Positions 17,162 through 29,459 of a stretch of 30,566 nt of DNA are shown here, one piece after another. Origin of the DNA: a virus (taxonomy: Duplodnaviria; Heunggongvirae; Uroviricota; Caudoviricetes); IMG/VR virus record IMGVR_UViG_2609459826_000004, positions 1-30,566 of that record; one strand, given 5' to 3'. Every line of letters begins with the position of its first letter. The stretch's first letter is position 1. Below the pieces are notes generated by a model that did no database searches, was not told the origin of the DNA, and saw only the letters and a program-made list of their open reading frames with translations. The translations under genes were made by a program, and so were the position numbers.

Positions 17162-17190
17162 GCCTCGCCATCGTGCGGGGCTTTTTATTT
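17162..17190 (+). terminator. Intrinsic terminator downstream of Q (tR'-like)
   Basis: Hairpin GCCTCGC / GCGGGGC (7 bp, one G-U pair, loop CATCGT) followed by TTTTTATTT. Confidence 0.55.
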
Positions 17191-17264
17191 GCCTGTAGCT
17201 CAGAGGAAAGAGCAACCGCCTTCTAAGCGGTTGGTCGCTGGTTCGAATCCAGCCAGGCGAGCCA
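17189..17264 (+). tRNA. tRNA-Arg (anticodon UCU)
   Basis: Hand-folded cloverleaf: acceptor TTGCCTG/CAGGCGA, D-arm GCTC/GAGC, anticodon stem ACCGC/GCGGT with loop CTTCTAA (anticodon TCT), 5-nt variable loop, T-arm GCTGG-TTCGAAT-CCAGC, discriminator G and encoded CCA. Closely parallels E. coli argU architecture. Confidence 0.8.
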
Positions 17265-25729: not shown

Positions 25730-27091
25730 GTGAAGCTATCCAGCATCCACGTTAAATCCCTCGCCATCAACGCCTCCAACATCTCAACGACAACCATCAA
25801 CGGGCAAGAACACTACGTCATTCGTGGTGCGGTTCCGATCGTCGATGACATCGTAATGAACGGTGGGCTCTATCCGGCTGAGGAGATTAACAACAGCTAC
25901 CAGACGATGGAAGGCAAGCTGATGCCGCTGCCGCACCCGATGGTAGATGGCAAGTATGTCAGCGCCAACGATCCGCGCGCTATCAACGCTTATCACGTTG
26001 GAGCCTGGGCTCAGAACGTCAGCAAATCCGGCGATCAGGTCGTCATGGACGTTTACATCAACAAGGCTGTTGCTGAGACGAAACCTGATGGCAAGCGCCT
26101 GATTAACCGCCTCGACGAGATGATCGCCGGCACCAACACCGACCCGATTCACCTCTCTACCGGCCTTCTCACCAACAAAGAGAAGAAGTCGGGCGAGTCG
26201 AAGGAGAAAAAGTACACCTGGATCGCCCGCAACATGCAGTTCGACCACATTGCCATCCTGCTGGATGAACCGGGAGCCGGAACGCCGGAAGAGGGCGTCG
26301 GCATGTTCGTGAACGCTGACGGTCAGGAAGGTGAGGTCGAAACTGCCAGCCTCATCGACGCGGCAAACAGCCTCAAAGACGGGCTGGTGAATAAGGTGAA
26401 GTTCTTCCTCACCCACAACTCCGACGCCTCCTTCGACGAAATCTACCAGATGCTGCGAGAGGCCATCCGCGCGCCGTCCGGCAGTGATGTTTATCGCTAT
26501 GTGGTGACCGTCTGGCCGGACAAATTCATTTACGAAGAGGGGTCGAAACTCTTCCAGCAAAAATACCTCATCGACGACAGCACAGTGACGCTGGTCGGCG
26601 ATGCAGTCGAAGTCGTGCGCAAACCCACTGAGTACGAAGTCAAAACCAACGGAGAACAAAACCCGATGAAACAGAAGATGATCGCCGCGCTCAATGCCGC
26701 AGGCGTAACAACCGAGGGGCTGACCGACGATCAGGTCTGGGATGCCTACAACCAGCAGATGCAGAAGAAAGCCGGTGGCGGCGATCCGGCTGGCGCTCAG
26801 GTGAATACTGATGCCATTACCGCAGCGGTAAACGCTGCTCTCACTCCGCTGACCGACAAAATCAGCCACCTGGAAACGCAGCTGCAGGCCAATGCGGAAA
26901 AAGATATCACCGCGAAGCGCCAGGCGGTGAAAGCCAAGTTCCCGTTCATGACCGAAGCGGCGATCAACTCGCTGGCTGGCGACGCGCTGAACGATATGTT
27001 CTCGCAGTGCCAGACCAGCACCGGGCTGAACCCTGCATTCCAGGGTAACGGCGCACAAAGCGAAATCCTTACCATGGAGGCACCTGAATAA
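25730..27091 (+). CDS. Putative head scaffolding / prohead maturation protein
   Basis: 453 aa, GTG start with TGAGGA RBS; C-terminal half coiled-coil-like (scaffold-like). Positioned between the MuF-like and capsid genes. Family assignment (DUF2213-like) is a recollection only. Confidence 0.5.
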   Translation: MKLSSIHVKSLAINASNISTTTINGQEHYVIRGAVPIVDDIVMNGGLYPAEEINNSYQTMEGKLMPLPHPMVDGKYVSANDPRAINAYHVGAWAQNVSKSGDQVVMDVYINKAVAETKPDGKRLINRLDEMIAGTNTDPIHLSTGLLTNKEKKSGESKEKKYTWIARNMQFDHIAILLDEPGAGTPEEGVGMFVNADGQEGEVETASLIDAANSLKDGLVNKVKFFLTHNSDASFDEIYQMLREAIRAPSGSDVYRYVVTVWPDKFIYEEGSKLFQQKYLIDDSTVTLVGDAVEVVRKPTEYEVKTNGEQNPMKQKMIAALNAAGVTTEGLTDDQVWDAYNQQMQKKAGGGDPAGAQVNTDAITAAVNAALTPLTDKISHLETQLQANAEKDITAKRQAVKAKFPFMTEAAINSLAGDALNDMFSQCQTSTGLNPAFQGNGAQSEILTMEAPE

Positions 27092-27552
27092 TGGCACTCG
27101 TTCCTCGTTTCCATACCGTAATCGCGGGCCCGGCCCGCAAGAATGACCCGCAGGTCATCGAGGCCCTCATGGCCGCCTCTATTAAGCCAGGCTCACTGGT
27201 CATGCTGGACAGCGCCGGGAAACTGGCTGTTCACAACGTGGCTGGCGGTGCTGGCGTAGCACTGGCACTACAGCACAACTATATCGGTGGCGGAGATATC
27301 CGGGATTCTGTCCCTGCCGGGGATACCGGCGCAGCCATCATGTGCGAAGACGATGTCGATTATCACATGCTGGTTAAGGCCGGTGAGGTGCTGCTGGAAA
27401 ACGAAGGCTTGGTTTCTGCCGGTGACGGTACGCTCGCCAAGTCAACCACTCCAGCAACAGACAAAGTCCTCTTCTACTCACGCGAGAAAATCACTGTCGG
27501 CGCTGAAGCGCAGCTTGTGAAAGTTCGCAAATCAGGGAAAGCAACCGCATGA
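27091..27552 (+). CDS. Hypothetical head protein (possible decoration/cement protein)
   Basis: 153-aa ORF between the scaffold-like and major capsid genes; GGAGG RBS; overlapping stop/start. Confidence 0.5.
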   Translation: MALVPRFHTVIAGPARKNDPQVIEALMAASIKPGSLVMLDSAGKLAVHNVAGGAGVALALQHNYIGGGDIRDSVPAGDTGAAIMCEDDVDYHMLVKAGEVLLENEGLVSAGDGTLAKSTTPATDKVLFYSREKITVGAEAQLVKVRKSGKATA

Positions 27553-28604
27553 GCATGATCGTTTTCAACAAAAAGCTGGTTACCGAACATAACCAGATTA
27601 AGCAGGCGTGGAATCAGCTGCTGATGCAGCGTGAAGCGTTCAACATCAACCAGAACACCATCACCGCCCAGTACAACGGCGCGCTGGAAGTTAACCAGGC
27701 CGCGCTGATTTCCAAAGACTACTGGCGCGAAGTGGACAACATCACCACCCGCGTTTTCCGCAATGACGAAGGCAACGGTCTGCTGGATGACCTGCTTGGG
27801 CTCGGTACGCCGATCTCTATCGGCAAAACCGCCGCTCTGTACCGCGTTTCCAGCGACGCCGGCAAGGTACATCGCACCCTGACTGGCCATGTGCCGGAAG
27901 AGCTGGATAAAGTCATCTACGACGAAGCAGGCGACCCGATCCCAATCTTCAACACCGGCTACAGCCGTGAATGGCGTGAATGGAACGGCATGCAGTCGGA
28001 AAACCTCGACGCGATGGCCGACGACCAGGAAGCGCACGTTGCAGCCATCCGTGAAGACATGGCTGACTACATGCTGTCTGGTGACGCGAAGGTGAAGGTG
28101 AAAGGCTACGTCGGCGCAGGTATCACCAACCACGCCAACACCAATCAGGTGGATCTGAGCGCGTCCGGTCTGAACATCGACCTGACCACCGCCAACCCTG
28201 ACGAGATGGTCGCGTTCTTCACTGGCCCGTTCGCTAAGCTCCTGGACGATAACTACGTGCAGGAGAAGGTGAAGGTGTGGGTGTCGCCTGACATCATGCG
28301 CAACATGAGCAAACCGTATTCCTCCGCTGCCGGCTTCAAAGAAGGTACAGTGCTGGAGTACATCCTGCGCTACGGCCGCATCGAGTCTGTTAACCAGACC
28401 TTTAAGCTGACCGGTAACCACTTCATCGCGTACGTGCGCAACTCGCAGTACATCAAGACGCGTATCGCCGCGCCGGTGGGTACCTTCATGATCCCGCGCC
28501 AGAATCCGTTCGACAACTACAACACTCTGGTATGGAGTGCGGTAGGTCTGCAGATCAAACGCGATTTCAACGGTCGCTCGAAAGTGTTCAACGCACAGGG
28601 TTAA
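27549..28604 (+). CDS. Major capsid protein
   Basis: 351-aa ORF after scaffold-like genes, followed by a strong intrinsic terminator, as is common after major capsid genes. No motif-level match claimed. Confidence 0.7.
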   Translation: MSMIVFNKKLVTEHNQIKQAWNQLLMQREAFNINQNTITAQYNGALEVNQAALISKDYWREVDNITTRVFRNDEGNGLLDDLLGLGTPISIGKTAALYRVSSDAGKVHRTLTGHVPEELDKVIYDEAGDPIPIFNTGYSREWREWNGMQSENLDAMADDQEAHVAAIREDMADYMLSGDAKVKVKGYVGAGITNHANTNQVDLSASGLNIDLTTANPDEMVAFFTGPFAKLLDDNYVQEKVKVWVSPDIMRNMSKPYSSAAGFKEGTVLEYILRYGRIESVNQTFKLTGNHFIAYVRNSQYIKTRIAAPVGTFMIPRQNPFDNYNTLVWSAVGLQIKRDFNGRSKVFNAQG

Positions 28605-28625
28605 GGGGCTTCGGCCCCTTTTCTT
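28603..28625 (+). terminator. Intrinsic terminator after the major capsid gene
   Basis: GGGGC-TTCG-GCCCC hairpin (extended by flanking A/T pairs) followed by TTTTCTT. Confidence 0.65.
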
Positions 28626-28636
28626 CAGGAGAGAAC

Positions 28637-28900
28637 ATGCAAAAGTTAAGAATCGAAAAATCGGGCTGCTGGGGCACGATTGATGGTGTATTCCAGCAAC
28701 TGCCTGTAGGTCATGAGTTCATTGCGGAATCCGTTCCGCCAGCGTTCGCAGGCCGGGTATCAGTCGTCGGTGAAGTCGGTGAGCAGGAGCTTGAGGTCGC
28801 CACGCCGGGCGATACTCCTGCAGAGCAGGCAGAGCAGGCAGAGCAGGCAGAGCAGGCAGAGCAGGCAGAAACCTCCTCTAAATCGAAGAAGGCGAAATAA
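28637..28900 (+). CDS. Hypothetical head-associated protein with (AEQ)5 repeat
   Basis: Start at internal ATG 28637 with AGGAGA RBS; 87 aa; C-terminus has PAEQAEQAEQAEQAEQAETSSKSKKAK encoded by a perfect 9-bp tandem repeat. Confidence 0.55.
   Translation: MQKLRIEKSGCWGTIDGVFQQLPVGHEFIAESVPPAFAGRVSVVGEVGEQELEVATPGDTPAEQAEQAEQAEQAEQAETSSKSKKAK
28820..28870. repeat. Perfect 9-bp tandem repeat (GCAGAGCAG) x5 plus partial copy, in frame
   Basis: gcagagcag repeated five times from 28820 to 28864, then gcagaa; encodes (AEQ)n. Confidence 0.8.
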
Positions 28901-28902
28901 CC

Positions 28903-29286
28903 ATGGCTGTAGTGCAGATAACGGCGGCGCAGGTTAAACAGCAGTTGGCTGCGCTTGGCTATACCACCGTTCCTGACTTCATGATCGACGCCTACCTGTG
29001 CAAGCTGGCGAAGATAGAACCCTGCCTGATTGCCGCCGGTTACGACGATTGCGATCTGATGCTCATCCAAGTGTACGCAGTCACCTTGATGGCTCTGACG
29101 GCGTACACGCAGCGGATTAAGTCGCAGGGTGCTCCGTCCGGTGCGTCCCGGTCGTTCGACTACAGCGACAGCGTGCTCAACATGCGTGACGCTCTGCTGG
29201 CGCTGGATACCTCCGGTTGCACGTCAGAGCTGCCCATCGATGTCGGGCAGAAGGTTGGGATGTTCCTCGTTGTTGGGGGCTGCTGA
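28903..29286 (+). CDS. Hypothetical head-tail connector / head completion protein
   Basis: 127-aa ORF in the head-tail joining region; call is positional. Confidence 0.5.
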   Translation: MAVVQITAAQVKQQLAALGYTTVPDFMIDAYLCKLAKIEPCLIAAGYDDCDLMLIQVYAVTLMALTAYTQRIKSQGAPSGASRSFDYSDSVLNMRDALLALDTSGCTSELPIDVGQKVGMFLVVGGC

Positions 29287-29459
29287 TGACCTGGACACCC
29301 GTAAGCGTCCGGCTGCCGCGCTCATTCACTCGCATCTGGGTGCTGACCGACACCGGTCGGGAGACTACCGGCTACGTCAAATCGGATGGGGAGTGGTTCA
29401 TTAACTGTGATCGCATCCGGGCTACTGGCGCGGTGGTGCTGCGCTGGAGGGAGGACTGA
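29286..29459 (+). CDS. Small hypothetical protein (57 aa)
   Basis: In-frame ATG within the track ORF 29217-29459, coupled to flanking genes. Confidence 0.35.
   Translation: MTWTPVSVRLPRSFTRIWVLTDTGRETTGYVKSDGEWFINCDRIRATGAVVLRWRED

Follow-up and report, generated by a model that had tools for sequence, protein, structure and literature searches.

An in-frame 9-bp coding tandem repeat of variable copy number in the last head-module gene of an enterobacterial prophage-like region

The window analysed here, which comprises 30,566 nucleotides of the IMG/VR virus record IMGVR_UViG_2609459826_000004 (positions 1–30,566 of that record), is a prophage-like region that corresponds to an enterobacterial prophage of siphophage type; its head module is similar to the one found in Shigella phage Sf11. 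The last gene of this head-morphogenesis module, a small gene at 28637–28900, contains a perfect 9-bp tandem repeat, and we found that this tract is an in-frame coding variable-number tandem repeat (VNTR, or minisatellite), a familiar type of coding length polymorphism rather than a new mechanism. Complete genes among about 100 related loci hold 0–14 perfect units, and at least 20 are present in a truncated contig. The explanation that accounts best for the observations as a whole, and which we consider probable, is a slippage-type coding VNTR in a nearly neutral protein tether, combined with a tentative accessory role and the conserved DNA island described below. The features of the small gene are as follows.

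28637–28900, + strand: small open reading frame (ORF) of 87 aa, isoelectric point 4.6, member of PHROG 2288 (ORF list and PHROG profile).
28627–28633, + strand: Shine-Dalgarno-like AGGAGAG ahead of the small gene's ATG (read from the sequence; GGAGAG or GGAGAA is kept in relatives).
28637–28789, + strand: N-terminal domain, residues 1–51, predicted by AlphaFold2 as five-strand beta; conserved core of the family.
28790–28810, + strand: LEVATPG motif, start of the conserved tail cassette, (nearly) invariant across the family.
28820–28869, + strand: array of 5.6 perfect tandem copies of the 9-bp unit GCAGAGCAG; its product, (AEQ)5-AE, is an acidic spacer that varies in unit number.
28871–28897, + strand: TSSKSKKAK, a basic tip at the C-terminus with a net charge of +4 (members of the family keep SKSKKAK or KKKGK).

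Tandem Repeats Finder reported the GCAGAGCAG array with a period of 9, 5.6 copies, 100% matches and a score of 100, which makes it the top-scoring tandem array of the window. The two-unit GCAGAGCAG pattern is confined to 28820–28869 within the window, and no match to it appeared in 100 dinucleotide-preserving shuffles. The array starts 183 nucleotides into the gene (28820 minus 28637), a distance divisible by 3, so that the unit is read as GCA-GAG-CAG (Ala-Glu-Gln) and (AEQ)5-AE spans residues 62–78 of the 87-aa ORF, within a C-terminal part that runs ...LEVATPGDTP-(AEQ)5-AE-TSSKSKKAK. The tract thus shows the features by which coding VNTRs or minisatellites are recognised: head-to-tail units of at least 6 bp, high purity beyond chance, and whole-unit polymorphism in close relatives.

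The ORF encodes a real protein, because 218 database homologues exist, the N-terminal 58 codons are under purifying selection (ratio of non-synonymous to synonymous substitution rates, dN/dS, of 0.05–0.20 against twelve relatives), and a core of about 48 residues is retained in distant relatives at 34–48% identity. It matches the profile of PHROG 2288, a family without an assigned function, with E 3.8e-23 over residues 1–77, as do relatives carrying a different, MALVKV-type N-terminal domain (E 2.9e-41), while searches of Pfam and NCBIfam returned no match. AlphaFold2 modelled residues 1–48 with a predicted local distance difference test (pLDDT) score of about 88, placing strands at residues 2–6, 12–15, 18–21, 27–30 and 41–46, and the domain matched no known fold or PDB chain; residues 55–80 scored below 50, so that the repeat region is predicted to be disordered. 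Charge is distributed unevenly along the chain, with −3 in the N-terminal domain, −2 in the motif, −6 in the repeat and +4 in the tip. The motif reads LEVATPG here, FEVATPQ in Sf11 gp38 and LEVATPD in ORF48 of Yersinia phage P400. Two distant relatives are of note for this part of the chain: P0121 has an acidic low-complexity (EP)n segment at the position of the repeat, and in P0124 a weak SAP-like helix replaces the tail (Pfam SAP E 0.017, below cut-off), which would fit a nucleic-acid-binding end, on thin evidence. For detection of the protein, SGCWGTIDGVFQQLPVGHEFIAESVPPAFAGR is a diagnostic tryptic peptide.

Two other reading frames touch the gene. A minus-strand ORF at 28711–29070 (SACSAC...) lies across two plus-strand genes, both with homologues and with low dN/dS. 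Separately, two proteins in the protein database (P0046 and P0122) have the repeat read in the +1 frame, giving Arg-rich tails, (SRQ)n...NRRRRNNHG, that correspond to an open frame of the window at 28713–28937; sequencing error may account for them, or they may be genuine frameshift alleles.

Copy number differs widely among relatives. In 120 proteins that represent clusters at 90% identity, the maximum length of an AEQ run is 0, 1, 2 or 3 units, with SEQ, PEQ, AEP and VEP as variant units. Three complete E. coli chromosomes hold 8, 8 and 12 units, Klebsiella phage KO-TP1 holds 7, Klebsiella prophages with a different type of N-terminal domain hold 1–4, and one Leclercia genome has a perfect array of 14 CCTGAACAG units, each encoding PEQ. 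Across 80 IMG/VR loci, complete genes have 1–14 perfect units in a broad and flat distribution, and contigs that end within the array have at least 14, 15 and 20. Six distinct 9-nt units have been expanded at this one position (GCAGAGCAG, CCTGAACAG, CCAGAGCAG, CCGGAGCAG, CCAGAGCAA and GTAGAGCCT), encoding AEQ, PEQ in four codon versions, and VEP, and every array is internally pure. At the protein level the acidic repeat accordingly takes the forms (PEQ)n, (VEP)n, (AEP)n and (EP)n in relatives.

These differences extend to very close relatives of the window, which has 5 units. L026, with an N-terminal domain 100% identical to that of the window, has 7, and L027, also among the nearest relatives, has 8; L020 and L021 (98.8% identical over 520 nt upstream) have 3, L016 and L019 (99.6–99.7% identical over their 233–320 nt upstream flank) have 2, and so do L017 and L018 (95.4% identical over 520 nt). 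When identity over 565 nt of flank was compared with protein length for all pairs of loci, agreement in length decayed as follows.

Flank identity at least 99.5%: same protein length in 78% of pairs.
Flank identity 98–99.5%: same protein length in 46% of pairs.
Flank identity 95–98%: same protein length in 7% of pairs.

Flank divergence gives a rough estimate, confounded by recombination, that the array changes at about 100 times the rate of a single nucleotide site. Groups of loci with 1–2 units are invariant and groups with at least 4 units vary (4 versus 9; 7 versus 8; 5, 6, 6 and 9), a length dependence of the kind that slippage predicts. A preliminary description of this DNA had recorded a perfect in-frame 9-bp repeat in the 87-aa ORF and proposed that it expands and contracts with the frame preserved, varying the length of an acidic tail. 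The repeat is as described, its extent now being 5.6 copies at 28820–28869, and the proposed variation is borne out: copy number is clearly not the same in all relatives, running from 0 to at least 20 and differing between loci with 98.8–100% identical flanks, with each unit contributing three residues and one negative charge.

Mechanistically, perfect direct repeats of this kind would misalign during replication or repair, through slipped-strand mispairing or unequal exchange between sister copies, and each event would add or remove 9 bp, leaving the frame intact and altering the spacer by three residues and one negative charge. The spacer would serve as a flexible tether joining the folded N-terminal beta domain to the basic tip SKSKKAK, and if tether length is loosely constrained, most variation would be nearly neutral and there would be no switch. 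Viable alleles with 0–1 units, together with repeat-free homologues, argue that length is tolerated. A phase-variable on/off switch can be set aside, as the 9-bp unit stays in frame and the same C-terminal tip is present in all complete alleles. Instability driven by hairpins in the array was likewise rejected, the DNA of both strands folding weaker than shuffled sequence (z above +1.5).

Several points weigh against this account. The same folding result means that the array lacks a hairpin tendency that would promote slippage, and slippage within one lineage is something that we infer. Recombination that moves the tail cassette could cause part of the variation between loci, and selection, instead of neutrality, may lie behind the broad and flat copy-number distribution and the expansion of six units in parallel. 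All four samples of one study have 2 units, and a single 3-unit Klebsiella allele occurs on 340 contigs, from which it follows that, over short periods, the tract is stable rather than hypermutable. As for function, our proposal is inferred from where the gene lies, what it is linked to, how the protein is built and a single negative result in proteomics, and sequence, profile and fold searches found no homology between the small protein and any characterised protein.

The tract lies where the head module meets the neck module, and three further features mark this boundary.

28790–28911: conserved island of about 110–120 bp comprising the tail cassette, the repeat and the gene boundary, with mosaic junctions at both ends.
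28885–28892, + strand: GAAGAAGG, Shine-Dalgarno-like site of the next gene (ATG at 28903), inside the Lys codons of the tip.
28903–29286, + strand: DUF7370/PHROG 786 gene, first of the downstream neck module (Pfam DUF7370 E 7e-41).

As judged by sequence comparison, the segment 28790–28911 forms a conserved cassette flanked by recombination junctions. In 100-nt bins, identity to L020, L005, L006, L007 and L009 falls from 92–100% in the head module to about 52% from about 28900, a drop confined to some 45 nt where the small gene ends; read directly, the sequence of L020 diverges immediately after the array and those of L005 and L006 at about 28911. A second mosaic junction lies at LEVATPG, between GCWG-type and MALVKV-type genes: between LEVATPG and the stop codon, L001 and L003 (the latter with the MALVKV-type N-terminal domain) have tail DNA that is identical base for base except for copy number, despite capsid proteins of types only 26% identical. 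The GCAGAGCAG unit is unchanged across lineages whose N-terminal domains have a synonymous divergence (dS) of 1–2.6, and DUF7370 falls into two allele classes (91–98% versus 57–59% identical) that reassort freely with the N-terminal domain classes of the small gene.

These patterns speak for the island as a recombination linker, a stretch of DNA-level identity used for swapping head and neck modules, in which the copy-number differences would be by-products of unequal crossovers. Against this, selection acting on random illegitimate recombinants also leaves junctions at gene boundaries, and part of the conservation of 28790–28911 has another cause, since the basic tip, GAAGAAGG and the next start codon lie inside it; these suffice to explain the last 30 nt, positions 28880–28909, which are 100% identical in the otherwise diverged L001, L003, L004 and L014. 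We regard the linker function as possible but on the unlikely side, and it would be compatible with a slippage-type VNTR. At the exact junction between the small gene and DUF7370, we also observed a 23-codon mini-ORF, M[GA]LREFDNPSKSRDELDEQTKGN, in L008 (2839–2915) and L012 (2725–2800), Leclercia and Citrobacter murliniae relatives, bounded on both sides by TAA(C/T)CATG.

It is rather less likely that copy number acts as a selected 'length knob' under diversifying or directional selection instead of being a neutral polymorphism. Such a spacer might tune the reach or charge of the tether in head assembly or packaging, or might help to escape a host defence that recognises the protein. The independent expansion of six 9-nt units into pure arrays and the very long alleles, of at least 20 units, leave room for selection; in addition, copy numbers of 1–14 are spread broadly and do not decay, and an acidic low-complexity segment recurs in the distant relative P0121. 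On the other hand, relatives with 0–1 units are common and evidently viable, the acidic repeat is absent from Sf11 gp38 and other distant homologues, and a graded change that preserves the frame does not turn the gene on or off; a mutation-driven process with weak length constraint, moreover, yields the same pattern. Doubtful to a still greater degree is a combined version, in which the repeat is an evolvable tuner of length and charge on a gpFI-like procapsid-DNA or packaging tether, or on a defence target, re-expanded repeatedly, with the cassette doubling as a crossover point between head and neck.

The part that the small protein plays can be approached through its neighbours in the late region.

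25730–27091: DUF2213 protease/scaffold-like protein.
27091–27552: head decoration protein (PHROG 766; Sf11 gp40, 9OCB_H, E 1.1e-36).
27549–28604, + strand: major capsid protein gene (Pfam DUF6260 E 2.9e-108, PHROG 771).
28603–28625, + strand: GC hairpin GGGGC-UUCG-GCCCC followed by UUUUCUU, directly after the capsid stop codon (fold, centroid −12.6 kcal/mol).

The late genes run in the order DUF2213, decoration, capsid, small gene, DUF7370, a 57-aa ORF, PHROG 797 and an HK97 gp10-like gene, and the capsid protein matches chain A of PDB 9OCB, which is Sf11 gp39 (E 8e-118). The type of N-terminal domain in the small protein co-varies with the type of capsid protein, and relatives with the GCWG-type domain have capsid proteins 93–99% identical. 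Between the two genes, the hairpin has a GC stem of 5–7 bp and a UUCG loop, with an energy z-score in context of −1.2; it was not called by a simple consensus terminator scan, probably because the maximal stem takes up two T's of the tail. Its exact 14-nt motif GGGGCTTCGGCCCC occurs in 73 of 80 IMG/VR relatives, in all seven enterobacterial genome loci (with an extra G ahead in L012), and also in Sf11 between gp39 and gp38 (L022 26574–26614, minus strand; z −3.9), where the capsid protein is 53% identical. This strong conservation, Sf11 included, argues that the hairpin is functional, likely as a terminator or mRNA 3′ stabiliser that would set the ratio of capsid to neck expression.

Tentatively, and with somewhat less than even confidence, we propose that the small protein is a low-copy or non-structural accessory factor of head assembly or DNA packaging, analogous to lambda gpFI in position and layout. 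We favour such a role because of the linkage to the capsid gene, the position after the conserved hairpin, the presence of a separate decoration protein and the results for Sf11 gp38. The preliminary description had placed the 87-aa protein right after a capsid terminator and suggested that it is possibly a head-decoration or head-associated protein. The position after the capsid gene and hairpin holds, the word 'terminator' is an interpretation of that hairpin, and the suggested decoration function found no support. A virion surface protein displaying an acidic tail of variable length on the capsid would agree with a gene that sits within the head module, is inherited with the capsid and decoration genes, and has an N-terminal domain type that tracks the capsid type. 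Yet the decoration protein is the product of 27091–27552, the 3.4 Å Sf11 capsid model 9OCB holds only the capsid protein and gp40, and the small protein shows no match to beta-tulip decoration proteins of the Sf11 gp40 or TW1 type; a gene behind a conserved terminator-like hairpin also fits low rather than capsid-level expression. Sf11 gp38 is absent from both the capsid model and the virion mass-spectrometry table (PMC12724387), which spans 13–92 kDa and has no entry near the 7.4 kDa of gp38. This absence is a weak negative that does not exclude virion association, a 7-kDa protein being easily lost from gels, and on balance we consider a decoration function very unlikely. The Sf11 proteomic assignments were compared by mass, because the gene numbers in Table 1 of PMC12724387 partly disagree with those of GenBank MF158038 (L022); for example, the 470-aa 'portal gp42' of the paper matches in size either GenBank gp41 (DUF2213-like) or gp63 (DUF1073 portal family). 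A search for virion proteomics of cultured relatives, including Yersinia P400, Erwinia 49/59 and Cronobacter ENT47670, found none.

Two further ideas about the capsid and small genes were considered and rejected. Ahead of its start, the small gene's frame stays open for 73 codons (28415–28636) and is −1 relative to the capsid gene, but fusion of the two proteins by a −1 frameshift is unlikely, as no X XXY YYZ slippery heptamer is visible before the hairpin, and in Sf11 a TGA that closes the upstream frame two codons before the small-gene start counts against it. Cleavage of LEVATPG by the prohead protease, an idea that drew on 'ALEV' near the expected capsid maturation site, was dropped because the Sf11 capsid protein lacks the ALEV segment yet loses its N-arm.

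Draft assemblies frequently break at the array. Contigs stop at the first unit or inside it in L010, L023–L025, L039, L043, L045, L057, L079, L097 and L102, and NCBI holds numerous 'partial' products of the small protein with 61–67 aa. Long alleles are consequently under-represented in protein databases, which is why cluster representatives peak at 3 units and contig data reach at least 20. That mis-assembly produced the copy number here or in relatives, as such breaks and partial products might suggest, is so improbable as to be negligible, given that the array of 50 nt is shorter than any modern read, that the complete E. coli chromosomes themselves hold 8, 8 and 12 units, that the same alleles recur across independent samples, and that changes always involve whole 9-bp units with the frame kept.

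Coding VNTRs are well known, and the case of the PHROG 2288 family at a module junction appears to be undescribed. The tract offers a high-resolution marker for typing and tracking prophages of a widespread group in Klebsiella, Enterobacter, E. coli, Citrobacter and Leclercia, and it is at the same time a recurrent source of contig breaks and truncated 'partial' protein records in draft assemblies. Its natural range, from 0 copies to at least 20, provides ready-made alleles with which to probe the spacer and the protein, and the sharp head/neck mosaic junction offers a test of whether modular exchange in phages is driven by short islands of conservation. PHROG 2288 and the related PHROG 2138 emerge as conserved companions of the capsid gene without an assigned function.

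Elsewhere in the window, we observed a 57-aa ORF (MTWTPVSVRLPRSF...) at 29286–29459 (+ strand), between DUF7370 and PHROG 797, whose counterparts in L002, L004 and L005 are labelled '50S ribosomal protein L13' in RefSeq/GenBank, in what looks like a propagated misannotation; its W-x-P-V...LP start appears to resemble that of DUF551-type small phage proteins. A phage-borne tRNA-Arg (anticodon TCT) lies mid-window at 17189–17264 (+ strand), and Sf11 has a tRNA-Arg(TCT) as well.

Among known systems, the closest to the small protein is Sf11 gp38, which likewise lies directly after a homologous capsid gene and the GGGGCTTCGGCCCC hairpin and shares the small N-terminal domain, an FEVATP motif and a Lys-rich end (TTKKKKAE), with an hhalign probability of 83% (E 8.5e-6). 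It differs in its length of 65 aa, in the absence of the acidic repeat and in its family, PHROG 2138 rather than 2288. Lambda gpFI, which is not known to be a virion component, offers a likeness of layout: it too is the product of a small gene between the capsid and head-tail joining genes (the lambda order is D, E, FI, FII), and it too is small and acidic, a disordered acidic linker separating its folded domain from a second element. In gpFI, however, the beta domain is C-terminal, not N-terminal as here, and there is no tandem repeat. Homology between the two was rejected: hhalign gave a probability of 0.1% (E 0.52), and the fold searches matched no PDB chain and showed no similarity to the C-terminal domain of gpFI. 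A passage of PMC4493119, citing Popovic et al. 2012, describes gpFI as helping terminase-DNA complexes to interact with procapsids. By analogy, the small protein may work like gpFI, as something other than a member of the gpFI family.

Some loci used for typing by multiple-locus VNTR analysis (MLVA) lie in prophages, and TonB-type spacers are charged and proline-rich, of the form (Glu-Pro)n-(Lys-Pro)n. With the latter the small protein has in common an acidic repeat followed by a basic segment, a likeness of composition only, as there is no evidence here of a rigid rod or of a periplasmic role. The nearest parallels to the repeat itself are the VNTR of NeuO in prophage CUS-3 (PMC3046976) and the Ser-Asp repeat spacers of staphylococci (PMC3324548), the latter likewise low-complexity spacers made from a repeat within the ORF. 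As in the tract described here, these coding VNTRs have perfect short units, copy differences in close relatives and slipped-strand mispairing as the presumed mechanism. They differ in what they modify, an enzyme or an adhesin there and an accessory protein of a phage head module here, and in the case of NeuO also in their effect, the heptanucleotide unit switching its gene on and off, whereas the 9-bp unit of the small gene never breaks the frame.

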